Shown: positions 5,501 through 45,087 of the stretch, in pieces
How the letters are laid out: each line of letters starts with the position of its first letter
How positions within the stretch are numbered: the first letter of the stretch is position 1
Notes under the pieces: model-generated
Told to the model about the DNA's origin: nothing
The model's database searches: none
The model's input: the letters and a program-made list of their open reading frames with translations, nothing else
Position numbers and translations under genes: made by a program
NCBI GenBank assembly: GCA_030390025.1
Contig: CM059432.1
Span: 22,012,001 to 22,076,000, forward strand
DNA length: 64,000 nt
Reading direction: 5' to 3'
Origin: Squalus acanthias
Lineage: Eukaryota

Positions 5501-5984
5501 ATTAGTTGACTTTGTTAAGTTCCATTGGATGGATTGATGGATAAAGTTGGATTGGAATGTTTCTTTTGTGGTGGTTTTTATGTCAGCCTAGTGGCCAAGT
5601 GGACGCTGTGATTGTCAGTAACAGAGGACAGGTATAGAATCATAGAATCATAGAATGGTTACAACACAGAAGGAGGCCATTCGGCCCGTCGATCCCGTGC
5701 CGGCTCTCTGCAAGAGCACTTCAGCTAGTCCCACTCCCCTGCCCTTTCCCCATAGCCCTGCAATTTTTTTTCCTTTAGGTACTTATCCAATTCTCTTTTG
5801 AAAGCCATGGTTGAATCTGCCTCCACCACCCTTTCAGGCAGTGCATTCCAGATCCAAACCACTCGCTGAGTAAAATGTTTTTCCTCATGTTGCGTTTGGC
5901 TCTTCTGCCAATCACCTTAAATCTGTGTCCTCTGGTTCTCGACCCTTCCTCCAGTGGGAACAGTTTCTCTCTATCTACTCTGTC

Positions 5985-8037
5985 ATGAAAACCCAAAAGG
6001 AAAAGTGATCCAATCATGGCTAACAAAAGAAATTAAAGCTAGTATTAAGTCAAAGGAGGAAGCTTATAAAGTTGCCAGAAAAAGCGGTCAGCCTGAGGAT
6101 TGGGATCTTTTTAGAAATCAGCAAAGGGGGACCAAGAAATTGATAAAGAAAGGGAAAATGGAATATGAGCACCAACTAGCGAAAAATATAAAAACGGATT
6201 GTAAAAGCTTCTATAGGTATGTGAAAAGGAAAAGACTGGCGAAGGTAAATGTAGGTCCTTTACAGTCAGAGATGGGAGAATTTATAATGGGGAATGAGGA
6301 AATGGCTGAGAAATTAAATAAAAACTTTGTTTCTGTCTTCACGGAGGAAGACACAAAAAACCTCCCAGAAATACGAGAAAACCAAGGGTGTGACGAGAAT
6401 GAGGAACTTAAAGAAATTACTATTAGTAAAAAAACAGTACTAGCAAAATTAATGACACTAAAAGTCGACAAATCCCAAGGACCAGATGACCTACATCCTA
6501 GGGTTTTGAAAGAGGTGGCCATTGGAATAGTGGACGCATTGGTTGTCATCTTCCAAAATTCTATAGATTCTGGAACGGTTCCTGCAGATTGGAGGATAGC
6601 AAATGTAACCACACTATTTAAGAAAGGAGGGAGAGAGAAAACGGGGAACTACAGACCTGTTAGCCTCACATCAGTAGTTGGGAAAATGCTGGAATCTATT
6701 ATAAAGGATGCAATAACTGGGCACTTAGAAACTAATAGTAAGATTGGGCAGAGTCAACATGGATTTATGAAAGGGAAATCCTGTTTGACAAACCTATTGG
6801 AGTTCTTTGAGGATGTAACTAGTGGAGTAGACAAAGGGGAACCAGTAGATGTGGTGTATCTGGATTTTCAGAAGGCCTTCGATAAGGTCCCACACAAGAG
6901 GTTGGTGAACAAAATTAGGGCACATGGAATTGGGGGTAATATACTAGCATGGATTGAGAATTGGTTAACAGACAGAAAACAAAGAGTAGGGATAAACGGG
7001 TCTTTTTCAGGATGGCAGGCTGTGACTAGTGGGGTACCGCAAGGATCGGTGCTTAGGCACCAGCTAGTCACAATCTATATCAATGATTTGGATGAGGGGA
7101 CTAAATGTAACATTTCCAAATTTGCTGATGATACAAAGCTAGGTGGCAGTGTCAGTTGTGAAGAGGATGTGATTAGGCTTCAAGGGGATCTCGACAGGCT
7201 CAGTGAGTGGGAGAGAACATGGCAGATGGAATATAATGTGGATAAATGTGAAGTTATCCACTTTGGTAGAAAAAACAGAACGGCAGAGTATTTCCTAAAT
7301 GGTGAAAGATTGGGCAATGCAGATGCTCAAAGGGACCTGGGTGTCCTTGTACATGAGTCACCGAAAGTGAATGTGCAGGTGCAGCAAGCCATTAGGAAGG
7401 CAAATGGTATGCTGGCCTTCATTACAATAGGATTTGAGTACAGGAGTAAAGAAGTCTTACTCTAATTATATAGGGCCTTAGTGAGACCACACCTGGATTA
7501 CTGTGTACAATTTTGGTCTCCTTACCTAAGGAAGGATATACTTGCCATAGAGGGAGTGCAACGAAGGTTCACGAGATTGATTCCTGGGATGGCGGGACTG
7601 TCGTATGAGAAGAGATTGCGTAAACTAGGCCTGTATTCTCTTGAATTCAGCAGAATGAGAGGGGATCTCATTGAAGCATACAAAATTATTACAGGGCTTG
7701 ATAGGGTGGATGCTGGGAGAATGTTTCCCTTAGCTGGGGAGTCTAGAACGAGGGGTCACAGCCTCAGGATAAAGGGTAGGCCATTCAGAACTGAGATGAG
7801 AAGAAATTTCTTCACACAGAGGGTGGTGAATCTTTGGAATTCTCTGCCCCAGAGGGCTGTGGAGGCTCAGTCATTGGGTATATTCAAAACAGAAGTCGAT
7901 AGATTTCTGACTAGTAAGGGCATCAAGGGATATGGCCGGTGAATGGAGTTGAGGCAGAAGATCAGCCATGATCTCATTGAATGGCTCGAAGGGCCGAATG
8001 GCCCACTCCTGTTCCTATTTCTTATGTTCTTATGTTC
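5985..8037 (+). mobile_element. 5'-truncated CR1 LINE, young; ORF2 RT broken by one in-frame stop (7463-7465)
   Basis: ORFs 5954-7465 and 7481-7942 are in one frame, with YRPVSLTS, YLDFQKAFDKV, GVPQGSVL and KFADDTKL; 3' tail (ttcttatg)n. Confidence 0.93.
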
Positions 8038-9255
8038 TAGACGCCTCATGATTTTAAACACCTCTATCAAATCTCCTCTTAATCTTCTCTGCTCTAAGGA
8101 GAACAACCCCAGCTTCTCCAGTCTATCCATGTAATTGAAGTCCCTCATCCCTGGAACCATTCTTGTAAATCTTTTCTACACCCTCTCTAAGGTCTTCACA
8201 TCCTTCCAGTTGAGGCCGAACCAATATTTTATAAATGTTCATCATAACTTCCTTGCTTTTTTACTCTCTGCCTCTATTCATGAAGCCCAGGATCACGTAT
8301 GCTTTTTTAACCGCTTTCTCAACCTGCCCTGCCACCTTCAATGATTTGTTCACATATACCCCTAGGTCACTCTGTTCATGCACCCCCTTTAGAATTGCAC
8401 CCTTTTGTTTATATTGCCTCTCCTTGTTCTTCCTACCAAAATGTATCACTTTGCACTTTTCTGCATTAAATTTCATCTGCCACGTGTCTGCCCATTCCAC
8501 CAGGCTATCTATGTCCTCTTGAAGTCTATCACTATTCTCCTCATTGTTCACTATACAGGAAACTCTTTATTAACCGGCACCGACGGGACCGGCGTGGTGC
8601 CGGTTAATCAAAAAGTCCGGATAACGGAGAGTTATATCTCCCAACGTACGAGAGCCCCGTACACATTGACATGCGCCTGCATGTAGAATTCGCAATATAT
8701 CGCGATTTGATTAATGAGGAGAAAACACAAAGTTTCGTTCAAACAGCTTTTATTTCAGCAGAATGCTGGCAGGTTTAAATTGGACACAAGCAGCCTGTAA
8801 AATGGCCGCCGCACCTCGTGACAGAACATTCTAGACTTTTCAACAGGCAGACAAGATGGCGTTCCAATAAACATTTGTGCAAGATCGATTACGATTCAGC
8901 ACAGTGAAGATAATACACGAGACATTATGGGTTTGCAGTATAAACATAGATACTGGAATCGGTCTCCCAGGTACAAAGGAAAGCCATTGTACCGAGTAAT
9001 CAAGGGCCCATCCAAAGGACATTAATATGTAAATCCCAACGACTCTACGATGAGAGAGCCGTTAGCAGGTAGTTATACAGGACACTTGGAAGCCCCAAAC
9101 CCCTCCAGGGAGAACACCGACCGATTTAACAATGGGAGAAATATTAACAGGCACTCAGACATTTATGAGTAGCCCCGAAACCCATTAAGAACGGAGATCA
9201 CCCATACAAGACATTTGGGCGCCAAACCCTAAACAAAAGAATGGACATTATAGTT

Positions 9256-9311
9256 GGGCGGGAAACGGAAGATTTTTGCACTATAATTGCAGGCTCCAAA
9301 CCGTCCATTCT
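9256..9311 (+). promoter_or_regulatory. Candidate LTR promoter: GC box, ETS-like CGGAAG, TATAA, Inr
   Basis: GGGCGGG 9256, CGGAAG 9266, TATAA 9282, CCATTCT 9305 followed by a pyrimidine run; an alternative TATATAA lies at 10019. Confidence 0.5.
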
Positions 9312-9519
9312 CTCTCTTGCTCTGGCATTCGCTCGCTTGCTCCTGTGTGTTATCCGGTCGATTCGTAACCTCGTGGCTGCTCCTGTGTACTCGTAGTTGG
9401 GCTTCTGCTTGCCCGTTGCCCTTTCTGAAAAGACTGTTGAACTTTCTGATCCGTTCGGATCTACCTCGTGTCGCGTAACGAAGACCTATGTTGGTAACTG
9501 GCAGCGGAACCGAAGGCCC

Positions 9520-9552
9520 GAGATGAGATGAGATGAGATGAGATGAGATGAG
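9520..9552 (+). repeat. (GAGAT)n microsatellite within the LTR (same length in the 3' LTR)
   Basis: gagatgagatgagatg... read directly in both LTRs. Confidence 0.9.
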
Positions 9553-10355
9553 AAGAGAGGAAGACCATATCCATCGCCACGGTCAGTAAATCCCGACCGC
9601 GCCTGTAGGTCGATCAGCCAAGTTTTCCTCGCCAGGAAGATTTCTATTTTGAACTTTTAACAAAACATATTGCATCGACGATAATGGGACTGTGTCTAAG
9701 GAGACTGGTACGTGAAACCAACCAACAGAGATCTTCATCACAGCAGACGGTCCAGCCTACTAGCCGGAGCAGCAGAAGCAAGTAAACAAGTGGGACCAGG
9801 AGATCTCCTGACCGACACGTGGGTGCTGCGGTGAAAAACATCCGATCAGCTATTCGGAATTTCTCCGAGTTATCACGAGTGGTGAGCATGAGTCTCGAGA
9901 TCCTACGAAGCTAGTTTAGGATAGATATTGATAGGGGAGGGTTTAAGGATTAAGGATATTTGTAATGTGTGCCCCTATTTACTTTGTGCCGTTCGTTCCT
10001 CGTTTCCCTAAGATCGACTATATAACTGTTTGTAAGATTGTACTGTCATTAATCTGTGCTTATGACATGTATTTCATAATTTTAAGTATCATGCAATAAA
10101 GATTTTCCATTTCGTACCATTCAAACCAAGTCTACATGAGTTTTATCTCCATTACTGCTCTCGCATCTAAGTCCAGTGTCTAGAACCGTAAGGGAGAGTG
10201 ATTCGAACCACTCACAGGTGTGTCTAGTGTTCCCAGACTGGCTGGAGACCAGAACAGGCAACCAGGCCTAGACCCGCACTGACATACAGGCTGCACAGAG
10301 CCGCGTGAACCTCACAGGCTGCGAGACACGCAGGGTCAGGAATCCCTTACAGAAA

Positions 10356-12167
10356 ATGGCGACCGCGGCAGGACACTGGCAGCGAGAGGGTAGTGTGTTA
10401 GATTTTGGAATGACTGTACGAAATGTTATGCAGGAAAAGATAGCGGATTATGTGTTTGGAAAGGTTAATCTAACCAAGAAATGGATAAGTGAATTGTTAG
10501 CGGATAAGAGCCCACTAGAGGCAGCTGAAAGGTGGACAGATAGTAAAGAACATAGAAAGACACTTGAGAAAGCAGTCTGGCTTATGTGCTACAAAAGGCA
10601 GGTTCAGATTTCAAACCAGACCATTACAGCGCTAGTAGCTCGAATCAGTCATTTAGAGGGAGAAATGGAGGAGAAGGTTTCTGGAGGGGAGGTGCTCATT
10701 AAGAATTTAAATGAGTTACACCAGGAAAGCCAGGAAGTCTCCAGTCACCTTAAAACAAGGATAGATTATCTCGAGTGCCAGGTCACTGAGGCAAAATTGA
10801 ATGAGAGCAGGTTAAAGGAAAGATGTAACCGCCAAGCTGCCCAGATAAGAACTCAAGAAGAGAGCTTAATGGGGGTTAGGTCGGCATATAAGTTGGCCCT
10901 TGAGGATAAGTTTCAGGGAGCCGACCATAGCGCCTGCCAAAGGGAGATAGAGAACCTCAAAAAGGCCGTGAACAATGCGAACGGCATGGTGTGCCTTATC
11001 AATCCGTCGGCGCACCAGCCGCTAGTAAATGAGAGATTTAGAAAATCCCCACCAAGTAAAGCAGAAGAAGTAGTAGCCACTGCGCCCTCCGCGCCACCCA
11101 GCTATTCAGAAACCTGGGTTAGGGAGGAAGCAATGGAAGAAACAAAAGAGCCCATTGAAAAGGAAGTAGAAAAGGGATCGCTGTATCCAGTAACGGGTAT
11201 TAAAAGGGGCCCAAGCAGAAACGGTGGGGAAGAACCGGGAGATCTCCTCGGACAGCTGGTGTTGCCTCACAGTTCACATCAGCTGAGAGCTATGATAAAT
11301 CACGTACGGAAGCTGACCGAGATAGACGACCCTTCCGTACATTTCAGAGAAGTTGAGCAAGCCGCAGCCATTAACGGCTGCGATGATGGGGAGACAGCAA
11401 AAATGCTGCTGTTCTCATTAGACAGCTCGGTCCTTCAGTGTCTCTCAGGCGAGAGCAAGAGGGGAAACAAGAGTTATGAGGAATTAAAGAATGAGGTCCT
11501 AGAAGTGTTGGGGGCGAACGACGGAGGTCCGTTTGCTAGAGTGGGACAGACAGTGCAGATGGAGGGAGAACCCCCGAAGGTTTTTGCCGACAGGCTGTGG
11601 CCAGTATATGAGCGCAGCTGTCTAGGTGCGCCCGAGCGCGAAGATGTGGAAGGCGCCGCTTTAACTCATTGGCTTAGGTGCATAATAGCCAACAGTTTAC
11701 CAGCCGTTAGAGAGCAGGCAAAAGCATGGTTTGATCCCAATGACCTCAACCTTACGGAAGAGTCGGTCTTGAATCGACTCACGTTAGGTTATCGTAATAT
11801 AAGGGGTATGACGACACGTCCCTTTAAGGGAAGAGTACATGAGGTACGACCCGCAGCCCCGTATCAAAGAGAGTGGCATCAGGAGGGTAATCGCGCCCCA
11901 CAGGCAAGTAATGCTTGTTACGGGTGTGGGAAGACAGGGCACTGGCGCAAGCATTGCAGGAACCCTTGGAAGGATTCCAAGGATAAAAATCCCGCGGTCC
12001 GAGCCCAGGCGCCTGTCCCGGCTAAGGAAGCCAAGGCACCCACCCCTCCCGACGACCTCGAAGCAGTGTTAGGAGCCATGCGCAAGCTAGTCTTGAATGC
12101 GCGTGGACAGGTGGCGGTCGCAACCGGCCCCGTAGGTGCCGCAGGACCGTCTAATAGTGCCCCATGA
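10356..12167 (+). CDS. gag: Gag polyprotein (603 aa from ATG 10356): coiled coil, PSAPPSY late domain, CA-like region, one CCHC knuckle
   Basis: First ATG after the LTR in strong context (AAAATGG); CYGCGKTGHWRKHC at 11916-11957; lies between PBS and pol. Confidence 0.92.
   Translation: MATAAGHWQREGSVLDFGMTVRNVMQEKIADYVFGKVNLTKKWISELLADKSPLEAAERWTDSKEHRKTLEKAVWLMCYKRQVQISNQTITALVARISHLEGEMEEKVSGGEVLIKNLNELHQESQEVSSHLKTRIDYLECQVTEAKLNESRLKERCNRQAAQIRTQEESLMGVRSAYKLALEDKFQGADHSACQREIENLKKAVNNANGMVCLINPSAHQPLVNERFRKSPPSKAEEVVATAPSAPPSYSETWVREEAMEETKEPIEKEVEKGSLYPVTGIKRGPSRNGGEEPGDLLGQLVLPHSSHQLRAMINHVRKLTEIDDPSVHFREVEQAAAINGCDDGETAKMLLFSLDSSVLQCLSGESKRGNKSYEELKNEVLEVLGANDGGPFARVGQTVQMEGEPPKVFADRLWPVYERSCLGAPEREDVEGAALTHWLRCIIANSLPAVREQAKAWFDPNDLNLTEESVLNRLTLGYRNIRGMTTRPFKGRVHEVRPAAPYQREWHQEGNRAPQASNACYGCGKTGHWRKHCRNPWKDSKDKNPAVRAQAPVPAKEAKAPTPPDDLEAVLGAMRKLVLNARGQVAVATGPVGAAGPSNSAP
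10357..10374 (+). promoter_or_regulatory. Primer binding site, tRNA-Arg(TCG)
   Basis: TGGCGACCGCGGCAGGAC is the reverse complement of GTCCTGCCGCGGTCG-CCA, the 3' end of vertebrate tRNA-Arg(TCG) as I recall it; 5 nt after the LTR. Confidence 0.85.
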
Positions 12168-15100
12168 CTAGAACCAGCACAGCCCGTCTACCTGTGTCCG
12201 CTTAGCTATGATGCGTGGAGGCGACCTGTGGTGGAGATGGAGGTAGAGAAACAGAAGGGCAGTTATTTGTTGGACACGGGAGCTTCTTGCACCATAATCC
12301 ATACAGATGACCCTTTTGACTCGCCGCTATCTACCAAGGTCCCATTCACGTTGGCAGGGTTCACAGGAAAAGAACAGGCTGGCACGTTTTCCCTTCCGCT
12401 ATCCATTCGTTTAGGAACACTTCGCCTTAAGTGGAAGTGTATACTGATGGCATGGCAAAAGGGGGGTGGAAGAGGTATTCTCGGGTCCGATCTCCTAGCG
12501 GGACACGGGATCCTCGTGGACCTCAGAAATCACTGTCTCTGGGGGGCTAAAGGTGAAAAAGGCGAGGTAATAGTGATTCCGGGGGAGGAAGAAACAGGGG
12601 TCCTGTGTACCGTACAGCCATCCGGAGGCTACGACCTCAGGCTTATGGTCGCAGATGTCCCAACGGACATGCAAACGTACGTGTCAGATAATATGCACGC
12701 GTTTGCAACCCACAAGCACGATTGTGGGAGAGTGGTCGGGTTTGAGGTCAGCGTAGATGGGGACCCCATGACCCGACCCCAAAAGCAGTATAACTTCCCC
12801 AAAGAAGCAGAACCCGATATGGAGACAGCAATGTCTTCCTTGGTGCAGCAGGGCGTGTTAAGGCCGATAGCCACACACGTGAACTCCCCATTATGGCCGG
12901 TTAGGAAGCCGGATAATTCGTGGAGAGCCACGGTGGACTACAGAGTCCTTAACAGTAACATTTCCGCCTGCGCGCCCACAGTAGCAGCAGTTGCTGACCT
13001 AATAGGGAGCATCCCAGCGTCCGCGACCACGTTCACGGTGCTGGATATCTCGAACGGTTTTTGGTCCATCCCGCTGCGGCGAGAGGACCAGTACAAGTTT
13101 GCCTTTACGTTCAAAGGGCAACAGTACACGTGGAACTGTCTGCCACAGGGTTTCCACAATAGCCCCAGTATTTTTCATCAGTGTATGGCAGGAAGTTTAA
13201 AGGAGTTTAGTCAGCCCAATCAGATAGTACAGTATGTGGATGATTTGCTCCTATTTACGGACTCAAGGGAGGAGCACGGACCACTACTGGACGAGTTATT
13301 GGAACTGTTAGCGAGAAAGGGTTTTAAAATAAATCCTAAGAAAGCACGTATCGGTCAGCGGGAAGTAAAATTCCTGGGACTGACCATACGCGCTGGGGAA
13401 AGAGCCATAGACAAAGCAAGGAGGGAGTCGGTGCAAGAATTACCGATTCCCAACAACGTAAGGGGTGTGAGGTCCTTCTTGGGACTGACCGGTTACTGCA
13501 GGGATTTTATCGAAGATTATGCGGCCACAGCGGCGCCGCTCCTCCGACTCCTCCATAAGGGGGTGGAGTGGCTTTGGGACGAGGGCTGCCAAGCAGCCTT
13601 CGAGAAGTTAAAAAGGGATCTGCAGACCGCGCCAGCCTTAGGGGCCATAGATGGGGGGAAGGAGTTTTTCCTGGAGGTAGCTGCCAGCGGAGACAGCTTA
13701 AGCGCCGTGCTGCTCCAAGAGCGTCACGGCAAGCTGAGGCCGGTTGTCTATTCATCCAGGGTATTAACGGATGTGGAGAGAAGTTTCTCCAATTGCGAAA
13801 GGCACCTTTTAGCCACGCATTGGGCTGTGAAAAGATCAGCGATCTTCACAGGGCTCTCTCCCATCACTCTCCTCACACATCACACACCAACTAAGATGCT
13901 TCTGGATGGGAGGATTAAAGACGGGACCGTAAGCAGCGCACGCATTGCGCGTTGGACCCTTCTTCTCTCCCAGTTGGATCTTAGAGTAAAGGGTCTTTGC
14001 GAGCCCAGGCTTGCGGCCAATTTGGTATACCCCGGTACAGCCCACCGGTGTTCGGTGGAAGGGGTGTGGGACGTCAACATAGGTTTACGGGCCGGGATAC
14101 ATCCCACTGGGCGCGAGATTTATGTTGATGGGTCTAGCACAGTGTCTGCTGGCGAGCGACTCACAGGGTGTGGAGTTTATGACCCTGCGGCAGACCTTGC
14201 CCTGGCGATCAAGCTCCCTAGCACTATGAGCGCGCAGCAAGCTGAGCTGTCTGCCGTGGTGTACGTTGTGACCCACCCAGACATTTTCCCAACCCCATAC
14301 ACGATTTGCTCGGACAGTATGTTCACCTGCAATTCGTGTACGGAATACCTGGCCATTTGGTCCCGCCGCGGATACACCTCCGCGGACGGGCGACCTTTAA
14401 CGGTGAAGCCCTTGCTGGAAAAGATCTTAGCAGCAGCAGTAGGGGAGGAAGGAGAGATTTTCATCCATAAGGTGAAAGCTCACTCCTCCACAGAGCCCCG
14501 TGGGGAGGGCAACCGGCAGGCGGATGCGCTAGCCAGGGAGGGTGCCCGCGACGGCACTTTCTGGAACCCCTACAGGACCGGACCCATAGCAGCGGTCCGA
14601 GGCGGGGACGGGAATACCGGGAACACCAGGGTAGCATTGCCCCTAGACCTCAAGACCGTCCAAGCCCAGGATCCCGCCCTAAAAGCAGTCCTAAAAACGA
14701 TTGCTGAGGGGAGGCAGGTAGAAGGTCCGTACAGTACGGCAACCCTCTCAGTTAAGGAAGGCATGCTGTTCCGCGAGGAGCAGTGGGTTGTGCCGCAGCA
14801 GCACAGGAGGGAATTCCTCCAGTTGGCTCACGAGGGACCAGGGGCAGGGCACCCCGGGCCCGAGGTTACCTGGCAACGGGTAGAGCAGGCGGGATGGTGG
14901 CCAGGGCTCAGGGAACAAGTCCGCGAGTTCTGTGCAAACTGTCTTGTGTGCGCCGCAAACAACCCAGACCCCCAGAAAAGGAAGGTGCCCATGGGACACG
15001 TAAGAAGGGTAGAGGGACCATGGCAGTCGATACAGATCGACTATATAGGACCCCTGCCCACCACCCAGGGAGGTTATAAGTACTGCCTCGTCCTGGTGGA

Positions 15101-16652
15101 TGTGTTTTCCAAGTGGGTGGAAGCCTTCCCTTGTCGAACAGCTACAGCACTGGGTACAGCAAAAATCTTGGTCCGGGAAGTGTTCTCGCGGTGGGGACTC
15201 CCCCGTTTTGTGGAGTCAGACCAAGGGAGTCATTTCACCGGCCAGGTGATGCAGAACACCCTCATGCTTTTGGGCATTGAAGGGAAGTGGCACGTAGCAC
15301 ACAATCCCCAGTCATCCGGGATTGTAGAACGTATGAACCGGACCCTGAAGGAGAAATTGAGGAAAGAGACTAGGAACTCGCCCCAAAAATGGGCGGAAGT
15401 TCTGCCTTTAGTCCTCATGGGGGTCCGGGCCAGTCAGTCAAAAAGTACGGGGTACTCCCCGCACGAGGTAATGACTGGGAGGCTCATGCGAACCCCCACC
15501 CATGTGCTAGCGCCGGTGCTCACTGAGGGTCAGCTCCAAGAGATAAGCAGGGACAAGTTCGCCCAGACTCTCTTGGAGCGCCTGAAGCAAGTTTATGAGC
15601 AGGCGGCTGGGAACATGGGAAGGCAGCATCAGGGCAATCGCTTGTTGCTGGAACCCCGCAAAACGCGGGAGTGGGAAGTAGGAGACCAGGTCATGGTCAG
15701 AAACTACGCCAGAGTGGGGAGTCTGGAACCACTATATATGGGACCCTACAACATTGTAGACAAGGCGAGTCCCATGGTTTACGCCGTAAAAGTACCTCGG
15801 CGCACTAAGTGGTTCCACATAAACCAATGCAGACTGTACCAGCCGGGTGCGCAGGGGAAAACTACAGGGGTAAATCCCGCCAATGGGAAAGCACAGCCCC
15901 AGGTAGGACCACAAGGCACACAGGCAGGCATAGCAGCTTGCATCAGGGGAAGGGACATCCCGGACGATCATGCAGCGTTTTTCTGGAGTTGGGGGTTAGA
16001 TGAGGAAGAACCCAGGGTACCCTGGTCAGATGAGGATAGTGCAGATGAGCATAGTGATGATGACGGGTGGTTCCTGAGGAACGGTCTGGGGGGAATGGGG
16101 CCTATAGGTAGAGATCCACACAGGGTGGACACACAAGCTGCAGGTCCCGAGGACAGAAGGGAGGAGCTAGAGGAGGCAGGGCCAGCCGCTATAGGAGCAC
16201 AGAGAGTACCGATGTGGCTCCCAGAGATGTGGCCGCCCGCTTTGAACGTCCAGTCCTCAGGGGAGGCAGAGATCACGAGTGAAGGGCCGCTTGCTGGGCC
16301 GAGCAGGGCGGAGCCACGAACTGCCAGCCCCGAGGTTAGGGAGGCGGAGTCAGCGGAGGCGGAGCCGGCGACTGTGATGGAACCCCAGGTCATCCCGTTG
16401 GAGGTCTCGGAACCCGGTCCGTCCGTCACGGAACCCCCGCCCATAGCAACTCCCCGTAGGTCAAGTAGAGAACCCCAGCCCAGGAGGATGTGGTCATGTC
16501 CCCAGACTGCCCCAAGGCGTAGACTTCAGGTTAAGATAACCCGGGTACAGACCGGCCACATCGCAGCAGTAACAGGCTGCGGCAGATCAGAGGGAAGGGT
16601 CAGTGCCCTCCCACCGTCGGGAAGAGCTCGCAGCAGCCTTCTCAGAATTTAA
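12168..16652 (+). CDS. pol: Pol (protease, RT, degenerate RNase H tether, RNase H, integrase, C-terminal extension), in frame with gag
   Basis: LLDTGAS (12273), LPQGFHNSP, YVDD (13233), YVDGS/AELSA/SDS/KAH/NRQAD RNase H, HHCC + D,D,E integrase (IQIDYIG, ESDQGSHF, VERMNR), GPY motif; frame is open from the codon after the gag stop. Confidence 0.96.
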   Translation, partial: LEPAQPVYLCPLSYDAWRRPVVEMEVEKQKGSYLLDTGASCTIIHTDDPFDSPLSTKVPFTLAGFTGKEQAGTFSLPLSIRLGTLRLKWKCILMAWQKGGGRGILGSDLLAGHGILVDLRNHCLWGAKGEKGEVIVIPGEEETGVLCTVQPSGGYDLRLMVADVPTDMQTYVSDNMHAFATHKHDCGRVVGFEVSVDGDPMTRPQKQYNFPKEAEPDMETAMSSLVQQGVLRPIATHVNSPLWPVRKPDNSWRATVDYRVLNSNISACAPTVAAVADLIGSIPASATTFTVLDISNGFWSIPLRREDQYKFAFTFKGQQYTWNCLPQGFHNSPSIFHQCMAGSLKEFSQPNQIVQYVDDLLLFTDSREEHGPLLDELLELLARKGFKINPKKARIGQREVKFLGLTIRAGERAIDKARRESVQELPIPNNVRGVRSFLGLTGYCRDFIEDYAATAAPLLRLLHKGVEWLWDEGCQAAFEKLKRDLQTAPALGAIDGGKEFFLEVAASGDSLSAVLLQERHGKLRPVVYSSRVLTDVERSFSNCERHLLATHWAVKRSAIFTGLSPITLLTHHTPTKMLLDGRIKDGTVSSARIARWTLLLSQLDLRVKGLCEPRLAANLVYPGTAHRCSVEGVWDVNIGLRAGIHPTGREIYVDGSSTVSAGERLTGCGVYDPAADLALAIKLPSTMSAQQAELSAVVYVVTHPDIFPTPYTICSDSMFTCNSCTEYLAIWSRRGYTSADGRPLTVKPLLEKILAAAVGEEGEIFIHKVKAHSSTEPRGEGNRQADALAREGARDGTFWNPYRTGPIAAVRGGDGNTGNTRVALPLDLKTVQAQDPALKAVLKTIAEGRQVEGPYSTATLSVKEGMLFREEQWVVPQQHRREFLQLAHEGPGAGHPGPEVTWQRVEQAGWWPGLREQVREFCANCLVCAANNPDPQKRKVPMGHVRRVEGPWQSIQIDYIGPLPTTQGGYKYCLVLVDVFSKWVEAFPCRTATALGTAKILVREVFSRWGLPRFVESDQGSHFTGQVMQNTLMLLGIEGKWHVAHNPQSSGIVERMNRTLKEKLRKETRNSPQKWAEVLPLVLMGVRASQSKSTGYSPHEVMTGRLMRTPTHVLAPVLTEGQLQEISRDKFAQTLLERLKQVYEQAAGNMGRQHQGNRLLLEPRKTREWEVGDQVMVRNYARVGSLEPLYMGPYNIVDKASPMVYAVKVPRRTKWFHINQCRLYQPGAQGKTTGVNPANGKAQPQVGPQGTQAGIAACIRGRDIPDDHAAFFWSWGLDEEEPRVPWSDEDSADEHSDDDGWFLRNGLGGMGPIGRDPHRVDTQAAGPEDRREELEEAGPAAIGAQRVPMWLPEMWPPALNVQSSGEAEITSEGPLAGPSRAEPRTASPEVREAESAEAEPATVMEPQVIPLEVSEPGPSVTEPPPIATPRRSSREPQPRRMWSCPQTAPRRRLQVKITRVQTGHIAAVTGCGRSEGRVSALPPSGRARSSLLRI

Positions 16653-16903
16653 AGGGGCCGCCCTGAGAACGGGCGGCACTGTAAAGTTATAGTTCTAAGT
16701 TTTAAGTTTATAGTTCAAGGTTAAGGTTGTAATTTTAATAAGGCTAAGTTTGTAGTGTTTTTAACAGAAAACGATAAATGATGGGAGTTTTAAGGTTAGG
16801 TTTAGAGGAAGTTTATTCAGCAAACGTTGAAGTTTACGTGAGGCGAGGTCAGGGGACCCGCTCACCCTTCACAAAAGCCAGAGACTCTTGCGAGGCTGGC
16901 TAC

Positions 16904-16923
16904 CTCATTCTATCTGATCACAG
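16904..16923 (+). promoter_or_regulatory. Candidate env splice acceptor
   Basis: ctcattctatctgatcacag|g, 13 nt upstream of the signal-peptide ATG at 16937; alternative acceptor tttttaacag ~16767. Confidence 0.45.
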
Positions 16924-16936
16924 GAACCAAGGAAGG

Positions 16937-19288
16937 ATGGAACGAATTCTAGTATTGCTCGTGGCAATCGGATGTGGATTGGCCTATCGAGGCCACACCA
17001 AGGATGTCGTGGTGTTTGGATGTTCCGGGGACACGGCCCCCATCGCGGTGGATGGGACCGGAAGACGGAAGGCAGAGGGGACCAGCACCTATTTCCACAA
17101 GGGAAGGTGGCCAGGATGGCTGGGAACGAACTCAACGGAGTATTCTAGCACATCGGGGTTTGCCTACCAAGAGACTTCTTTACTGTGCCCCAAAGTAAGG
17201 ATCATCGCACCCAGGATCAGCGTCACCGTCGGCAAACGGATTTGTTTGACTTGTAGTGGGAAGGTCCCATTGAGCCGATGGTGGTGGCTGCGAAAGCTGA
17301 GCAAAACTATGAGAAACTCTTCGGTCGAGTGGGAACGACTGGGTAATAATACCCATCGGACAATTACGGGGACAGACGGACAAGTGAAAGTCTGTTGGGA
17401 CAAATGGTGGGAACCGGATGAGGGAATTTATGTATGTATGTGGGGGTCAAAGTACGTTTGCCCCAAAGGCATCTCCATATTTTTTATTAATCAATGGCAG
17501 GATAACGGACAGGGGATGAGGTGGGATGCGAGCACCAGGGGGTGCGGAGCCCCATTCTCCCCGATCCCAGTAAATGCCACTGAACTCATTACGCGCCCAC
17601 GCAAAGCCCCGCCCACGATTCCGGTGGTTCTAGCTGAGGAAGAAGGGTGCCCTAAAACTAGTAAGGGACCCGGGAATGGTTTGGTACTGGTCCCCACAGA
17701 CCAGATACTCTTTCAGGGGGTACATTACGCGGTGGCCTCGGTGATTTTAAATCTCACTGAGGTACGGTTACCAGAGTGGTGCCCCAAAAAGACGGAACAG
17801 TTGTATCAGGTCCTGTTGACCAAGATGTTCAGACAATTTTACGAGTTTGATTTTGCAGAAATTGATAAGACAAGTTTGTATACCGCACCGCAGGAAGTTT
17901 TGGATCAAGTAGGGAGGCAAAGAAGGGGTTTGGTGAACGATGCGTTCACTGCTTTTAACACAGGGACATCTGTGGTCAACGCTCTCGACAGTGTGGAGCT
18001 GCAGACCCAGATTAATGGTTTAAAAACACAGTTAAAAGACATTCTAACAGATGAGAATAAAGTGGTAGGGTCAGGTCTACACGAGGACCAAGCCATGACT
18101 CTCCATTTAAAGGAAATTATAGCAGAGCTGGAGAAACATGCGCGTACGGTAAATGCCCTGATCAGGGAAGATCGGAATGCATCCGATCAAGCTGCGCAGA
18201 ACGAGGTGTGCGTGCTTTACGGGGCGTGGTTACTGGGCGAGGGCCGCAGTAATTTGGAGGATTTAAAACAAGGTTTGGTTCCGTCCTGGATAAGTAACAA
18301 ACACCTACGGGCGCTCCACCCTTTTCAGAACGCATTAAGTCCGTGCCAGCTCAGGCTAGCTTCAGAAGCTTACCCAGTCCCCGTGGACTGCGGACGATCA
18401 AACCATACTATTATGGGAATAGTATTACGCATGCCGGTTTTGGGCGACACAGCAAAGCCCGCCCCGGTATATCGGGTAGAGAACATTGGTGTCATTCAGG
18501 GGGGAGCCCACATTCGTTACGCAGCGGTTCCACCTTACGTCATCCGCTGGGAGCAAACGATGACAGGTACAGATCTCTCTGGTTGTCGTGGCAGGGGAGC
18601 ACACATAATACTGTGCCCCCAGCACTTGAATGCCTTTTTAACACCACAGTGCGGGTTCAGAACGGCTGGCGCCAAGTCCATGAATTGCACCATGGAGGCA
18701 ATGGCACAAGATCATGTGCCTCCGCAGGTAGCATACATCGGGGGTGGAACATATTGTGTTACCACTGCAGCGCAACACTACCAGCATGGAAACCGTAGCC
18801 GGTGTCCGGTGAGTGACAGCAGTTTCTGTTTTAAACCCAGGGCTGAAGTTCAAGTAGCACAACAGCGAATTATCCCAATCCCTGAACCATCCACTGTTCA
18901 TCTCACAGTAAAAGAGAATTTCACCGACTTGCAGCGATTTGTCGCGCATTTTGGATACCTCATTCCCCCTCTCCCTGAACACTTAACCAAACTTCTGAAA
19001 GCCGTCGCGGTATCACAGAAACATTTTTATACATTAGAGCAGAAAACTGTCGAAATAGGAACAGACATTTTGGACATAGTAGTTCCACCGTGGTGGAATC
19101 TGTTCACTAATATTGAAGTGCCTTCATGGATCAGAATAGCCTCCCACATTTTAGTCGTATGTCAAGTGTTTATTGTAGTGTACCTATTGGTCATACATTG
19201 TAAAAGAGACAAACGCCTCACCAAGCATGAAAACACGGGAGAGTGGCGAGAACGTTACGTGCGCGTGCACGATGAGAGCACCGTGTAA
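16937..19288 (+). CDS. env: Envelope glycoprotein (783 aa from MERILVLL): signal peptide, Ig-like domain, furin site, F-protein-like fusion subunit, TM anchor
   Basis: Signal peptide MERILVLLVAIGCGLA; RQRR/GLVNDAF at 17915-17926; heptad repeats; Cys-rich ectodomain; TM IASHILVVCQVFIVVYLLVIHC; many N-x-S/T sequons. Confidence 0.9.
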   Translation: MERILVLLVAIGCGLAYRGHTKDVVVFGCSGDTAPIAVDGTGRRKAEGTSTYFHKGRWPGWLGTNSTEYSSTSGFAYQETSLLCPKVRIIAPRISVTVGKRICLTCSGKVPLSRWWWLRKLSKTMRNSSVEWERLGNNTHRTITGTDGQVKVCWDKWWEPDEGIYVCMWGSKYVCPKGISIFFINQWQDNGQGMRWDASTRGCGAPFSPIPVNATELITRPRKAPPTIPVVLAEEEGCPKTSKGPGNGLVLVPTDQILFQGVHYAVASVILNLTEVRLPEWCPKKTEQLYQVLLTKMFRQFYEFDFAEIDKTSLYTAPQEVLDQVGRQRRGLVNDAFTAFNTGTSVVNALDSVELQTQINGLKTQLKDILTDENKVVGSGLHEDQAMTLHLKEIIAELEKHARTVNALIREDRNASDQAAQNEVCVLYGAWLLGEGRSNLEDLKQGLVPSWISNKHLRALHPFQNALSPCQLRLASEAYPVPVDCGRSNHTIMGIVLRMPVLGDTAKPAPVYRVENIGVIQGGAHIRYAAVPPYVIRWEQTMTGTDLSGCRGRGAHIILCPQHLNAFLTPQCGFRTAGAKSMNCTMEAMAQDHVPPQVAYIGGGTYCVTTAAQHYQHGNRSRCPVSDSSFCFKPRAEVQVAQQRIIPIPEPSTVHLTVKENFTDLQRFVAHFGYLIPPLPEHLTKLLKAVAVSQKHFYTLEQKTVEIGTDILDIVVPPWWNLFTNIEVPSWIRIASHILVVCQVFIVVYLLVIHCKRDKRLTKHENTGEWRERYVRVHDESTV

Positions 19289-19717
19289 TCGGAAAATGGC
19301 GTCACTCCCGCTCGCCGCGTGCGCCGCGGAAGTTTGTACTCATATAAGATTTTCAGAGATTGTAAATACGTTGGGAACTCGACATGTTTCAGAGTTGGGG
19401 TTTTGATTATTTTAGTGATGGTGTTGATTGTTTGGTTTTGGGTTTTGTTTTTTCCTTTCCCTGAATAAAAGACAAATATACAGGTGATACGAGGGGTATC
19501 GGCCTGGTTACACCGGGAAGGAAAACGAGTGGTGTAAGTTTAAGGGCAAATAATGCCTACGGTGATATAAAATGTGATTTTCTTGGGAAATAAGGACGAC
19601 ACAGAGACCCTAGCTAAGTTAAAAATTATGGGATTAATTTACTGGATTCGGAGAGAAATCGAGATAATATTGCTCACCACTATGATTCTTGATACGATAA
19701 GCGGAGTTATTCGCATC

Positions 19718-19729
19718 AACAGGAGGGAC
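19718..19729 (+). promoter_or_regulatory. Polypurine tract (short)
   Basis: aacaggagggac immediately before the 3' LTR TG. Confidence 0.7.
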
Positions 19730-21399
19730 TGTAGAATTCGCAATATATCGCGATTTGATTAATGAGGAGAAAACACAAAGTTTCGTTCAAACAGCTTTTA
19801 TTTCAGCAGAATGCTGGCAGGTTTAAATTGGACACAAGCAGCCTGTAAAATGGCCGCCGCACCTCGTGACAGAACATTCTAGACTTTTCAACAGGCAGAC
19901 AAGATGGCGTTCCAATAAACATTTGTGCAAGATCGATTACGATTCAGCACAGTGAAGATAATACACGAGACATTATGGGTTTGCAGTATAAACATAGATA
20001 CTGGAATCGGTCTCCCAGGTACAAAGGAAAGCCATTGTACCGAGTAATCAAGGGCCCATCCAAAGGACATTAATATGTAAATCCCAACGACTCTACGATG
20101 AGAGAGCCGTTAGCAGGTAGTTATACAGGACACTTGGAAGCCCCAAACCCCTCCAGGGAGAACACCGACCGATTTAACAATGGGAGAAATATTAACAGGC
20201 ACTCAGACATTTATGAGTAGCCCCGAAACCCATTAAGAACGGAGATCACCCATACAAGACATTTGGGCGCCAAACCCTAAACAAAAGAATGGACATTATA
20301 GTTGGGCGGGAAACGGAAGATTTTTGCACTATAATTGCAGGCTCCAAACCGTCCATTCTCTCTCTTGCTCTGGCATTCGCTCGCTTGCTCCTGTGTGTTA
20401 TCCGGTCGATTCGTAACCTCGTGGCTGCTCCTGTGTACTCGTAGTTGGGCTTCTGCTTGCCCGTTGCCCTTTCTGAAAAGACTGTTGAACTTTCTGATCC
20501 GTTCGGATCTACCTCGTGTCGCGTAACGAAGACCTATGTTGGTAACTGGCAGTGGAACCGAAGGCCCGAGATGAGATGAGATGAGATGAGATGAGATGAG
20601 AAGAGAGGAAGACCATATCCATCGCCACGGTCAGTAAATCCCGACCGCGCCTGTAGGTCGATCAGCCAAGTTTTCCTCGCCAGGAAGATTTCTATTTTGA
20701 ACTTTTAACAAAACATATTGCATCGACGATAACGGGACTGTGTCTAAGGAGACTGGTACGTGAAACCAACCAACAGAGATCTTCATCACAGCAGACGGTC
20801 CAGCCTACTAGCCGGAGCAGCAGAAGCAAGTAAACAAGTGGGACCAGGAGATCTCCTGACCGACACGTGGGTGCTGCGGTGAAAAACATCCGATCAGCTA
20901 TTCGGAATTTCTCCGAGTTATCACGAGTGGTGAGCATGAGTCTCGAGATCCTACGAAGCTAGTTTAGGATAGATATTGATAGGGGAGGGTTTAAGGATTA
21001 AGGATATTTGTAATGTGTGCCCCTATTTACTTTGTGCCGTTCGTTCCTCGTTTCCCTAAGATCGACTATATAACTGTTTGTAAGATTGTACTGTCATTAA
21101 TCTGTGCTTATGACATGTATTTCATAATTTTAAGTATCATGCAATAAAGATTTTCCATTTCGTACCATTCAAACCAAGTCTACATGAGTTTTATCTCCAT
21201 TACTGCTCTCGCATCTAAGTCCAGTGTCTAGAACCGTAAGGGAGAGTGATTCGAACCACTCACAGGTGTGTCTAGTGTTCCCAGACTGGCTGGAGACCAG
21301 AACAGGCAACTAGGCCTAGACCCGCACTGACATACAGGCTGCACAGAGCCGCGTGAACCTCACAGGCTGCGAGACACGCAGGGTCAGGAATCCCTTACA
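19730..21399 (+). repeat. 3' LTR (1670 bp)
   Basis: Direct repeat of 8682-10351, followed by TSD TGCA. Confidence 0.97.
21143..21148 (+). terminator. Poly(A) signal in the 3' LTR (10095-10100 in the 5' LTR)
   Basis: AATAAA after an AT-rich tract, ~250 nt before the LTR end. Confidence 0.65.
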
Positions 21400-23479
21400 T
21401 GCATTCGGAGCTCCGTCTCCCCGGGGACCGCCAGCTGACCATCTGTCGTGTCCGCTGCCTACCCGGGCTGCACATTCCCCTCCCAATCTACACGCTCCGA
21501 TACAAGGCAAATGCCTCGGGGTTTTTTTTAAAGTTAATTCTAAATGAGAGATGAAGGAAAACCCTGGTTACCTACTCAAGAATTTTGCCGGTTAAGAGAG
21601 ATTTCCGGATATTTGGGTGCCGGTTAATAAAGAGTTTCCTGTATTTCCAAGTTTTGTGTCATCTGCAAATTTTGAAATTGTGCCCTGTACATCCAAGTCT
21701 AAGTCATTAATATATATCAAGAAAAGCAGTGGTCCTAGTATTGACTCCTGAGGAACACCACTGTATACTTTCCTCCAGTCCGAAAAACAACCGTTCACCC
21801 CTACTCTCTGTTTCCTGTCACTTAGCCAATTTCATATCCATGTCACTATCCCTTTTATTCCATGGGCTTCAACTTAGCTGGCAAGCCTATTATGTGGCAC
21901 TTTATCAAACGCCTTTTGGAAGTCCATGTATACCCCGTCAACCACATTGCCCTCATCAACCCTCTCTGTTACCTCATCAAAAAACTCAATCAATTTAGTT
22001 AAACATGATTTGCCTTTAGCAAATCCATGCTGGCTTTCCTTAATTAATCAATGCTTGTCCAAGTGACTGTTACTTTTGTCCCGGATTATTGTTTCTAAAA
22101 GCTTCCCCACTACCGAGGTTAAATTGACTGGCCTGTAGTTGTTGGGTTTTTTGAACAATGGCGTAACGTTTGCAAGTCTCCAGTCCTCTGGCACTATCCC
22201 CATATCTAAGGAGGGTTGGAAGATTATGGCCAGTACCTTCGCAATTTCCACTTTTACTTCCCTCAGCATCCTAGGATGCATCCCATCTGGTCCTGGTGAC
22301 TTATCTACTTTAAGTACAGCCAGCCTTTCTAGTACCTCCTCTATCAATTTATATCCCATCCAGTATCTCAACTACCTCTTCTTTCACTATGACTTTGGCA
22401 GCATCTTCTTCCTTGGTAAAGACAGTTGCAACGTATTCATTTAGTACCTCAGCCATACCCTCTGCCTCCATGTGTAGGTCTCCATTTTGGTCCCTAATCG
22501 GCCCCACCCCTCCTCTTACTACCCGTTTACTATTTATATGCCTATAGAAGACTTTTGGATTCCCTTTTTTCTTAGCAGACAATCTATTCTCATATTCTCT
22601 CTTTGCCCCTCTTATTTCATTTTTGACTTCCCCTCTGAACTTTCTGTATTCAGCCTTATTCTCAACCTGACATCTGTCATACGCTCCCTTTTTCTGCTTC
22701 ATCTTGCTCTCTATCTCTTTCGTCATCCAGGGAGCTCTGAATTTGGTTGCCCTCATGGGAATGTACCTCGACTGTACCAGAACCATCTCCTTTTAAAGGG
22801 AGCCCATTGTCCGATTAAAGTTTTGCTTGCCAATCTTGGATTCCAATTTACCCGGGCCAGATCCATTCTCAACCCACTGAAATTGGCTTTCCGCCAATTA
22901 AGTATTTTTACTCTAGATTGCTCCCTGTCCTTTTCCATAGCTAGTTTAAACCTTATGAGACTGTGATCACTGTTCCCTAAATGTTCCCCTACTGACACTT
23001 GCTCTGCTTTACCCACCTCATTCCCCAGACCCAGTTCCAGCAATGCCTTCTTCCTCATTGGGTCAGAAACTTACTGATCAAGAAAATCCTCCTGAACACA
23101 CTTCAAAAATTCTTCAGTGTGTTTCTCTCTCCACAGTTGCTGCCTGACCTGCTGAGTATTTCCAGCATTTTCTGTTTCTATTTCTGAAATTCTTCCCCCT
23201 CTCTGCCCTTTACACTATTACTATCCCAGTCTATATTAGGATAGTTGAAGTCCCCCATTATCACTACTCTATAGTTCCTGCACCTCTCTGTAATTTCCCT
23301 GCAAATTTGCTCCTCTATATCCTTTCCACTAGTTGGCGGCCTATAGAACACACCTAGTAGTGTAATGGCACCTCTATTGTTTCTCAACTCTAACCAAATA
23401 GATTCTCCAGGACCTAGCCTCCAGGTAAGGTGTGGGACTATTATTGATAGGGGAATTGGGGTTGTGTTCACTCGTACCA

Positions 23480-26740: not shown

Positions 26741-29290
26741 CATAAGAAATAGGAGCAGAACTAGGCCATTCGGCCCCTTGAGCCTGCCCCGCCATTCAAT
26801 AAGATCATGGCTGATCTGATCTTGGCCTCATCTCCAATTTTCTGCCTGTTCCCCATAATCCTTGACTCCCCTGTAGTTCAAATGTCTGTCTATCTCAGCC
26901 TTGAATATATTCAAATGACTCGGCCTCCACAGCTCTCTGGGGTAGAGAATTCCAAAGATTCACGACCCTCTGAGAGAAGAAATTCCACCTCATTGCGGTC
27001 TTAAATGGGCAACCCCTTATTCTGAAACTATGACCCCTAGTTCTAGATTCCCCCATGAGGGGAAACATCCTCTCAGCATCTACCCTGTCAAGCCCCCTCA
27101 GAATCTTATATGTTTCAATAAGATCACCTCTCATTCTTCTAAACTCCAATGAGTATAGGCCCAATCTGCTCAACCTTTCCTCATAAGACAACCCTTTCAT
27201 CCCAGGAATCAACCTAGTGAACCTTCTCTGAGCTGCCTCCAATGCAAGTATATCCCTCCTTAAATAAGGAGACCAAAACTGTATGCAGTACTCTTGGTGT
27301 GGTCTCACCAGCGCCCTGTACAGTTGTAGCAAGACTTCCCTACTTTTATACTCCATCCACCTTGCAATAAAGGCCAACATTCCATTTGTCTTTCTAATTA
27401 CTTGCTGTACCTGCATGCTAACTTTTTGTGTTTCATGTACAAGGACACCCAGATCATCTGTACTGCAGCATTCTGTAGTCTCTCTCTATTTAAATAATAT
27501 TTTGCTTTTCTATTCTTCCAACCAAAGTGGATAACCTCACATTTTCCCACATTATACGCCATTTGCCAAATTTTTGCCCACTCACTTAACCTATCTATAT
27601 CCCTTTGCAGACTGTCCTCCTCACAACTTGCTTTCCCACCTATCTTTGTATCATCAGCAAATTTGGCTACAGTATACTCGGTCTCTTCATCCAAGTCATT
27701 AATATAGATTGTAAATAGTTGAGGCCCCAGCACTGATCCCTGTGGCACCCCACTAGTTACAGTTTGCCAACCTGAAAATGACCCATTTATCCCGACTCTC
27801 TGTTTTCTGTTAGTTAGCCAATCCTCTATCCATGCTAATATATTACCCCCAACACCATGAGCTCTTATCTTGTACAGTAAACTTTTATGTGGCACCTTAT
27901 CAAATGCCTTTTGGAAATCCAAATACACTACATCTACTGGTTCCCCTTTATCCACCCTGCTCGTTACATCCTCAAAGAATTCTAATAAATTTGTCAAACA
28001 TGATTTCCCTCTCATTAAACCATGTTGACTCTGCTTGATTGTATTATGATTTTCTAAATGTCCTGCTATTACTTCTTTAATAATGGATTCCAGCATTTTC
28101 TGAATGACAGATGTTAGGCTAACTGGCCTATAGTTTCCTGCTTTCTGTCTCTCTCCTTTCTTGAATAGGGGTGTTACATTTGCGGTTTTCCAATCCGCTG
28201 GGACCTTTCCAAAATCTAGGGAATTTTGGAAGATTACAACCAATGCATCACTATCTCTGCAGCCACTTCTTAAAATAGGATGCAGGCCATCAGGTGCAGG
28301 GGACTTGTCAGCCTTTAGTCCCATTAGTCTGTCTAGTATGTTTTCCCTAGTGATAGTGATTGTTTTAAGTTCCTCCCTCCCTTTTGCCCTTTGATTTTCC
28401 ACTAATATTGGAATGCTTTTAGTGTCTTCTACCGTGAAGACAGGTACAAAATATTTGTTCAAAGTGTCTGCTATTTCCTTGATTCCCATTATTAATTCCC
28501 CAGTCTCATCCTCTAAGGGACCAACTTTTACTTTAGCTATTCTCTTCCTTTTTATATACTTGTAGAAGCTCTTATTGTCTGTTTTTATATTTCTTGCTAG
28601 TTTACTCTCCATCTATTTTCTCCTACTTTATTTTGTTTTAGTCGTCCTTTGAAAGTTTCTAAAAATTTCCCAATCTTCTGGCCTACCACTAATCTTCGCA
28701 ACATGGTATGCCTTTTCTTTCAATTTGATATCCTCCTTAACTTCCTCAGTTAGCCACGGATGGTTCATCCTTCTCGTAGAGTCTTTCTTTCTCACTGGAA
28801 TATATCTTGATTGAGAGTTATGAAATATCTCCGTTAAAGTCTGCCACTGCTTATTTACCATCTTGCCCTTTAATCGATTTTCCTAGTCCACTTTAGCCAA
28901 CTCTGTCTTCATACCCTTGTAATTGCCTTTATTTAAGTTTAAGACACTAGTTTCAGAACCAAGTTTCTCACCCTTAAACTGAATGTGAAATTCTATCATG
29001 TTATGATTACTCTTTCCAAGAGGGTGCTTTACTATGAGATCATTAATTAATCCTGTCTCATTACACATTGCCAGATCTGAAATAGCCTGTTCCCTGATTG
29101 GTTCCACAATGTATTGTTCGAAGAAACTGTCTGAATACACTCTATGAACTCGTCCTCAAGGCTATCTTTGCCAATTTGATTTGTCCAATTTATATGAAGT
29201 GTAAAATTGCCCACGATTATTGCAGCACCTTTCTTACAAGCCCCCATTATTTATTGATTTATACACTGTCCTACAGTGTAGCTGCTGTTA
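26741..29290 (-). mobile_element. CR1 LINE ORF2 (endonuclease end + RT), frameshifted
   Basis: ORFs 27398-28612 and 26895-27416 with YLDFQKAFDKV and KFADDTKIGG; tail cataagaaataggagc at ~26741. Confidence 0.92.
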
Positions 29291-43846: not shown

Positions 43847-45087
43847 ATGGGAACCATTAATTTCCTTTCATCATAGAGCCTCAGATTCAGATGAGGAGCA
43901 TCCATGGCAGCAGCAGAACCAGGCAGCTCAGCAGCAACAGCAGCAGGAGCCCCAACCTCCTGCTCAGCCACCTGATGCTGCACAGGGCAGAAGGCGCCAG
44001 CGCATCGAGGCACCTCACCGCAGGAGATACCCCCCACAGAGGGTTTACAGACAGAGGATGAGCAACCTCAACAAGAGTAAGCAGCAGTGCCAAAGGAGGC
44101 TGAGACTTTCAGGAGAGGTTGTCCGAGAGATCTGCGGCCTGCTGCAGCAAGACCTGGTGCCCAGATGAATGGGTGGACACCCCTTACCAGTGGCCGTCAA
44201 AGTCACCACCGCACTCAACTTCTTTGCCTTAGGCTCCTTCAAGGGATTATCAGCAGACATCAGCGGCATCTCCCAGTCGGCCGCCCACAGTTGCATCACG
44301 CAAGTTACCGATGCCCTTTTCGCAAAGGCGCACAATTACATCCAGTTCACAAGGGATCAAGCAAGTATAACTGCCCGTTTGGTTGGCTTTGCAAATATGG
44401 CAGGCATGCCAATGGTGCAGGGCGTAATAGACTGCACACATGTGGCCCTTAGGGCACTCCATCACAACCCAGCTATCTTTGTCAACCGAAAGGGCTTCCA
44501 CTCCCTCAACGTACAGCTGGTGTGTAACCACAAGGAGTTCTTGCATGTTTGCGTCAAGTTCTGTGGTAGTTGCCATGACTCTTTCATCCTGCGGCACTCT
44601 AGTGTTCCTCCATTCTTCAATCCGCCAAACCAACTTAACGGATGGCTCCTTGGTGACAAAGGCTACCCCCTGAACAAGCGGCTAATGACGCCGATCAGGA
44701 GGCCAGCTAACGAGGCTGAAGAGCGCTACAACGCCAGCTACACTTCGACCAGGTCCATCATCGAGCAAACCATTGGGTTGTTGAAGATGCGCTTCCGTTG
44801 CCTTGACCGATCAGGTGGAGCCCTGCTGTATACATCATACAGGGTCTCCAGAATGGTCTGCTGTGCACTGCACAACATCGCACAGCGTCGTGGCTTGCAG
44901 CTTCCTGATGAGCAAATGGCTCAGTTCCAGCCCTCCTCAGATGAGGATGAGGAGGAGGAGCAGGAGGAGGAGGAGGAGCAGGAGGAGGTCAGAGCGCCTG
45001 GTGTATCGACCAGCGGCAGCGGCAGCACGCAAGCACATGGCTGCCCGGGATGCAAGGGATGAACTTATCCTGGCCAGATTTGCATAG
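43847..45087 (+). pseudogene. Harbinger transposase (HARBI1-like); DDE core open in 44169-45062, ends disrupted
   Basis: [57 protein letters not shown]. Confidence 0.9.

Follow-up and report, generated by a model that had tools for sequence, protein, structure and literature searches.

Readthrough of a stop codon is already known in retroviruses, and so are UGA codons at the gag-pol junction of fish and frog retroviruses: a 2026 review lists SSSV (UGAAGA), ZFERV (UGACGA), and RMEV (UGAAGU), and a TGA separates the two genes in XtERV-S (PMC13517186; PMC8278194). Type II readthrough sites, in which UGA is followed by CUA or CGG, occur at the alphavirus nsP3-nsP4 junction as UGA-CUA and in the vertebrate genes AQP4, OPRL1, OPRK1, MAPK10, and MDH1 as UGA-CUAG (PMC13517186; PMC4132726). 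The UGA-CUAG context is proven to be leaky in mammalian cells, where 12 nt past the stop suffice, and the readthrough extension of AQP4 is conserved as far as the cartilaginous fishes (PMC4132726). UGA-CUA is listed for alphaviruses and a triatovirus, and for no retrovirus in the consulted parts of the review (PMC13517186). The subject here is a complete endogenous retrovirus (ERV) at positions 8682–21399 of a 64,000-nucleotide stretch of Squalus acanthias DNA (contig CM059432.1, positions 22,012,001 to 22,076,000, forward strand; hereafter the window), whose gag and pol genes share one frame with a single TGA-CTAG between them. Type II stop-codon readthrough is the best explanation of how its Pol is expressed, with a probability of about 85%, and the UGA-CUA(G) context at a retroviral gag-pol junction, as well as its sharing with lokiretroviruses, appears to be new. 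The junction comprises the following features (window coordinates).

10356..12167, + strand: gag, 603 amino acids (aa), with one CCHC knuckle (zf-CCHC, E 0.043) and a TGA end
12165..12171, + strand: TGA-CTAG stop with type II readthrough context (class per PMC13517186 and PMC4132726)
12174..12234, + strand: weakly supported predicted stem-loop, beginning 6 nt past the stop codon
12168..16652, + strand: pol frame, 1494 open codons, with protease, reverse transcriptase (RT), tether, RNase H, integrase with SH3, and a tail of about 270 aa

The junction letters are CCA TGA CTA GAA, and the TGA at 12165–12167, placed there by an original prediction made from the letters of the window, is the sole stop that this reading frame contains from about 11900 to about 12500. 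Downstream, the frame is open as far as a TAA ending at 16652 and carries all Pol domains, and gag read from the ATG at 10356 gives a Gag-Pol of 603 + 1 + 1494 = 2098 aa, which agrees with the length of about 2098 aa in that prediction. Of the 114 TGA trinucleotides in the internal region, the gag stop is the one that CTA follows; the chance expectation by base composition is 0.013 for CTA and 0.004 for CTAG (both post hoc figures). TGA-CTAG falls within the type II definition; the type III pattern of gamma- and epsilonretroviruses, a UAG in the context GGV, GUA, or GAU, is absent, the stop being UGA. The parallels drawn earlier with alphaviruses and with AQP4 and MDH1 are borne out by the literature (PMC13517186; PMC4132726), while the view of opal suppression as an unusual mode for a retrovirus was overstated, given the UGA junctions of SSSV, ZFERV, RMEV, and XtERV-S; opal junctions in retroviruses of aquatic hosts were known already.

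Unspliced viral RNA would be translated from the gag ATG, and most ribosomes would halt at the UGA at 12165, yielding the 603-aa Gag. The others, a few per cent if the level is that of other UGA-CUAG sites, would insert the amino acid of a near-cognate tRNA and continue through protease, RT, RNase H, and integrase to the Gag-Pol of about 2098 aa. The CUAG context would be the main signal, and the 3′ hairpin may help. A 3′ extended stem-loop is a feature of alphavirus type II sites, and the cellular genes do not need one (PMC13517186; PMC4132726).

The position of the stop is conserved among relatives of this Gag. The comparison set consisted of 14 relatives, taken from 30 matches, one further match, and their cluster members. 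Seven of these, belonging to three lineages at 35–50% identity, keep the C-terminal motif, and all seven end 12–13 residues past it (12 in the window); the remaining seven are fragments or too distant. A protease motif past the CCHC knuckle was found in none of the 14. When aligned with a skate Gag of 51% identity, the window Gag has its first and last residues in the same columns. The named sequences closest to Gag and Env come from a skate and a sawshark, in keeping with a probable cartilaginous-fish host. Because the seven motif-bearing relatives all end at the matching place, it is very unlikely that gag-pol is normally one fused open reading frame (ORF) into which a private nonsense mutation has brought the TGA, a circumstance that the original prediction had named as a refutation. 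A coelacanth gene model (P0005) that fuses Gag-like and Pol sequence, as well as several lokiretrovirus sequences that read straight through (PMC7947760 supplement), would favor such a mutation, but P0005 is an automatic gene model, read here as protein.

Other routes to Pol have to be set against this layout. Ribosomal frameshifting is common in other retroviruses (PMC13517186), but a simple frameshift cannot make Pol here because gag and pol share one frame and two compensating shifts would be needed. Close to the junction, one of the other two frames is blocked by stops at 12133 and 12169 and the other by stops at 12152, 12155, and 12203, and, as first noticed from the letters, no slippery heptamer is available: a scan of 11701–12320 for XXXYYYZ found none in the −1 phase upstream of the stop, the two heptamers present being out of phase (11820) or downstream of the stop (12311). 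Frameshifting is the least credible of all the routes. Production of Pol from its own spliced mRNA in the manner of foamy viruses, with an acceptor near 12205 or 12171–12182, had been named as a further refutation and is disfavored, with a slim chance of being correct. The pyrimidine-rich AG at 12205 and the apparently F-like Env, a type also found in foamy viruses, are consistent with it; on the other side, the earliest ATG of pol is codon 24, itself within the protease domain, conserved-looking protease residues are encoded upstream of 12205, and the shared frame differs from the arrangement in spumaviruses, which start pol separately and in a different frame (PMC8278194). In the contigs of four sequencing runs, no pol-splice joint was present among the 15 of 35 joints listed, where the env splice was also unseen and the RNA status of the runs was guessed.

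Re-initiation or internal entry at the ATG at 12237 would give a separate Pol, and a relative with 81% identity (P0002) has a Met at the equivalent place. However, the Pfam RVP alignment begins at pol codon 17, ahead of this first Met at codon 24 and of the catalytic Asp at codon 36 (12273), and the 23 codons between the stop and the ATG are open and encode residues resembling those of the coelacanth and other relatives, so a separate start at codon 24 would clip the protease and pol lacks a usable start of its own; the chance of this route is slimmer than that of splicing. The GTG at 12228, earlier set aside as an artefact of the ORF track, is indeed implausible as a eukaryotic start, the first in-frame ATG being that at 12237. 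Specific recoding of the UGA, either as selenocysteine, for which UGA is generally known to be a codon, or through A-to-I editing of some transcripts, could draw on the downstream hairpin, but no selenocysteine insertion sequence (SECIS) family matched at E ≤ 1 in 8600–21500 (seven Rfam matches far below the cut-off were unrelated, and no Rfam family reached the cut-off), the stop codon is unpaired in the predicted fold, and the CUA context accounts for the site alone; recoding is no more probable than the internal start. Readthrough is the best reading because a simple frameshift cannot join ORFs of the same frame, a Pol begun on its own would lose part of the protease, and UGA-CUAG is leaky, and a readthrough product of about 2098 aa is well supported.

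Several points weigh against readthrough. Its occurrence, its level, and the residue inserted are all inferred. The stimulatory structure sought downstream took the form of a predicted hairpin at 12174–12234 that is not exceptional, with a z-score of −1.65 (11 of 200 shuffles as stable), a range of −0.95 to −2.36 across four folding windows, and a rank outside the best 15 of 156 windows. The candidate 3′ splice site at 12205, with 10 of 14 pyrimidines, is the best of 13 nearby. Conservation within the lineage was judged from protein ends, which reveal the position of the stop and do not reveal the CUAG letters. No variant at 12165–12171 occurs among the 40 of 989 variant rows listed, which proves little. 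A clade of relatives (P0013, P0014, P0016, and P0017) keeps a Met 31 residues ahead of the protease Asp, which hints at a separate start there, and related clades may use other routes to Pol.

More than half of the provirus words are present in 20 of the 24 sequencing runs listed (six organisms). In the run of a second organism, loose ends of divergent contigs fall shortly ahead of 12164 and past 12197–12199 (among 24 of 439 listed), a weak hint that the stop region alone is shared. Among viral contigs, five pattern matches included no relatives, and among metagenome contigs, 3 of 70 stretches are relatives that, at 23–25% identity, are uninformative. Two of the three TGACTA sites in an elephant-shark ERV supplement were viewed, and neither lies at a gag-pol junction.

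A parallel is found in lokiretroviruses, whose junctions were read by eye in the published supplement (PMC7947760) for 15 of 24 elements, where motifs split over line breaks may be missed. Seven of these 15 have TGA-CTA where gag ends. The TGACTAG to be sought in other copies and relatives is present in part: CTAG follows the TGA in Ofa, Pyo, Sau, and Cne, CTAA follows it in Bsp, Dcl, and Lro, and the other eight of the 15 differ. Six of the seven stay in frame up to and into the annotated Pol, while Bsp has a one-base shift further on. Pfl has CGA-CTA at the gag end, similar to alphavirus sense variants (PMC13517186), and Tfu has X followed by Leu-Ser at the equivalent place. The remaining elements go against this pattern: the frame runs on unbroken in Ame, Str, Xla, and Xtr, the mark in Npa is ambiguous, and the motif of Lch is out of frame. 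Where gag ends in the fused proteins of the amphibian elements (Xla, Xtr, and Npa), Phe-Phe or Phe-Leu-Gly is found. These residues are reminiscent of −1 slippery sequences, so readthrough, fusion, and frameshifting may all occur in the lokiretrovirus lineage. The TGA-CTA match has apparently gone unremarked: the terms readthrough, stop codon, and frameshift are absent from the main text of PMC7947760 and from the Odin paper.

The spacing between the stop and the protease Asp is 35 codons in the window and about 65 or more in lokiretroviruses, and with this difference the two stops are not proven to be homologous. UGA-CUA readthrough might be an old and overlooked mode of early-branching retroviruses, shared by descent between this class III-like shark lineage and a lokiretrovirus sister lineage, and it might even be the ancestral retroviral route to Pol, in which case spliced pol, frameshifting, and UAG readthrough would have arisen later; this proposal is doubtful, and it is likelier that the two lineages acquired this strong context independently.

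Membership of the lokiretroviruses was the first guess for the provirus itself and was rejected, as the RT motifs and the RT tree differ. The RT motifs, compared by eye, resemble the row of snakehead retrovirus (SnRV) and differ from the Loki rows viewed. A quick tree built from 58 RT rows, SnRV itself not among them, places the window RT in a group of 30 rows with 98% support, in which its position is not settled; P0011, with an SnRV-type motif, belongs to the same group, and the sole Loki-type row (P0024, 35% identity, recognized by motif) lies outside it. The RT is at most 53% identical to all rows other than P0002. A tether and second RNase H are present in Pol, a feature common to all retroviruses. 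The label that fits the provirus best is SnRV-like class III ERV (clade Huo, PMC6001957), membership not being proven.

The provirus is a young complete copy, with gag, pol, and env ORFs all open. Its long terminal repeats (LTRs), compared with each other, are 99.8% identical, with three mismatches and no gaps over 1670 bp each, and a loose figure for its age is about 4 million years at the shark rate assumed in PMC4422223. Its remaining features are as follows.

8682..10351, + strand: 5′ LTR, 1670 bp, TG...CA ends, flanked by the 4-bp target-site duplication TGCA
10357..10374, + strand: putative primer-binding site, 5 nt past the LTR, overlapping the gag ATG
16778..19288, + strand: env ORF, 836 aa from 16778, with a signal-peptide-like start at 16937, a putative immunoglobulin (Ig)-like domain, a furin-like site, and a putative F-type fusion part
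19718..19729, + strand: purine-rich tract adjoining the 3′ LTR
19730..21399, + strand: 3′ LTR, from the LTR-LTR comparison

The putative primer-binding site presumably matches tRNA-Arg, and no tRNA gene for comparison is present in the 64-kb window. The gag ATG lies inside this site (10352–10374 region), 5 nt past the LTR, which itself holds many short upstream ATGs, and the Met-Ala-Thr start of gag also occurs in the skate Gag and in P0114. Past the integrase SH3, at 15840–16649, the Pol tail of about 270 aa is acidic and proline-rich and has no Pfam match. Elsewhere in the window, broken pieces of LINE-type RT or endonuclease and of a DDE transposase, which are ordinary repeats, occur at 5921–7465, 27398–28612, 55608–56990, and 44169–45062.

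Env gave feature-based matches of 0.93–0.95 to F-type clusters and no match to Pfam Fusion_gly. An Ig-like domain at 17105–17536, in the N-terminal part ahead of the putative F-type fusion part, is a lead only (feature matches of 0.87–0.89 to Ig clusters; Pfam Ig_3, E 0.038), and a frog relative (model P0006) has a weak Ig match within a run-on tail. The apparent combination of an F-type Env with an SnRV-like Pol is likewise a lead, and the literature search found no report joining snakehead retrovirus, a paramyxo-like fusion glycoprotein, and an endogenous retrovirus.

The junction would add a type II signal, in the style of alphaviruses and cellular genes, to the retroviral means of setting the Gag:Pol ratio, and it would do so in a lineage for which no earlier description of Pol expression was found and alongside published lokiretrovirus sequences that carry the same signal. 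It bears on the evolution of Pol expression at the base of the retroviruses, and, being short, it is suited to reporter testing. ERV screens and gene callers that take such a stop as damage, or that start Pol at an internal Met, misannotate elements of this type. No description of a UGA-CUA signal in retroviruses was found in a literature search outside which most subscription journals lie, so that absence from print is unproven.

Compared with known systems, the window resembles the gamma- and epsilonretroviruses (MoMLV, UAG-GGA with a pseudoknot; WDSV, UAG-GAU) in having one in-frame stop between the nucleocapsid knuckle and the protease D[TS]G. It differs in having UGA-CUAG instead of the type III UAG, in an RT outside the gamma/epsilon-type branch of the quick tree, and in showing no evident pseudoknot, although no search aimed at pseudoknots was made. 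Foamy viruses start pol separately in another frame, whereas the window has gag and pol in the same frame and its first pol Met within the protease. Foamy virus Gag is not known to have the CCHC knuckle that the window Gag possesses. With SSSV, ZFERV, RMEV, and XtERV-S, the window shares an opal stop, a common frame, and presumed suppression, but its lineage and Env type differ from theirs, and none of the three contexts listed for SSSV, ZFERV, and RMEV is UGA-CUA (PMC13517186; PMC8278194). Another comparison is with SnRV and the class III ERVs of clade Huo, including CmiERV lineage I of the elephant shark. The RT motifs of SnRV, judged by eye, look close to those of the window, and SnRV-like ERVs are already known from sharks (PMC4422223), but SnRV itself has UAG-GGC at gag-pol (PMC13517186). 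Lokiretroviruses share the tether and RNase H, in seven published sequences TGA-CTA, and perhaps the F-like Env, but differ in RT type, and none were reported in the six cartilaginous-fish genomes screened (PMC7947760). The stop context of the alphavirus and vertebrate type II sites is identical to that of the window, where it joins Gag to Pol.

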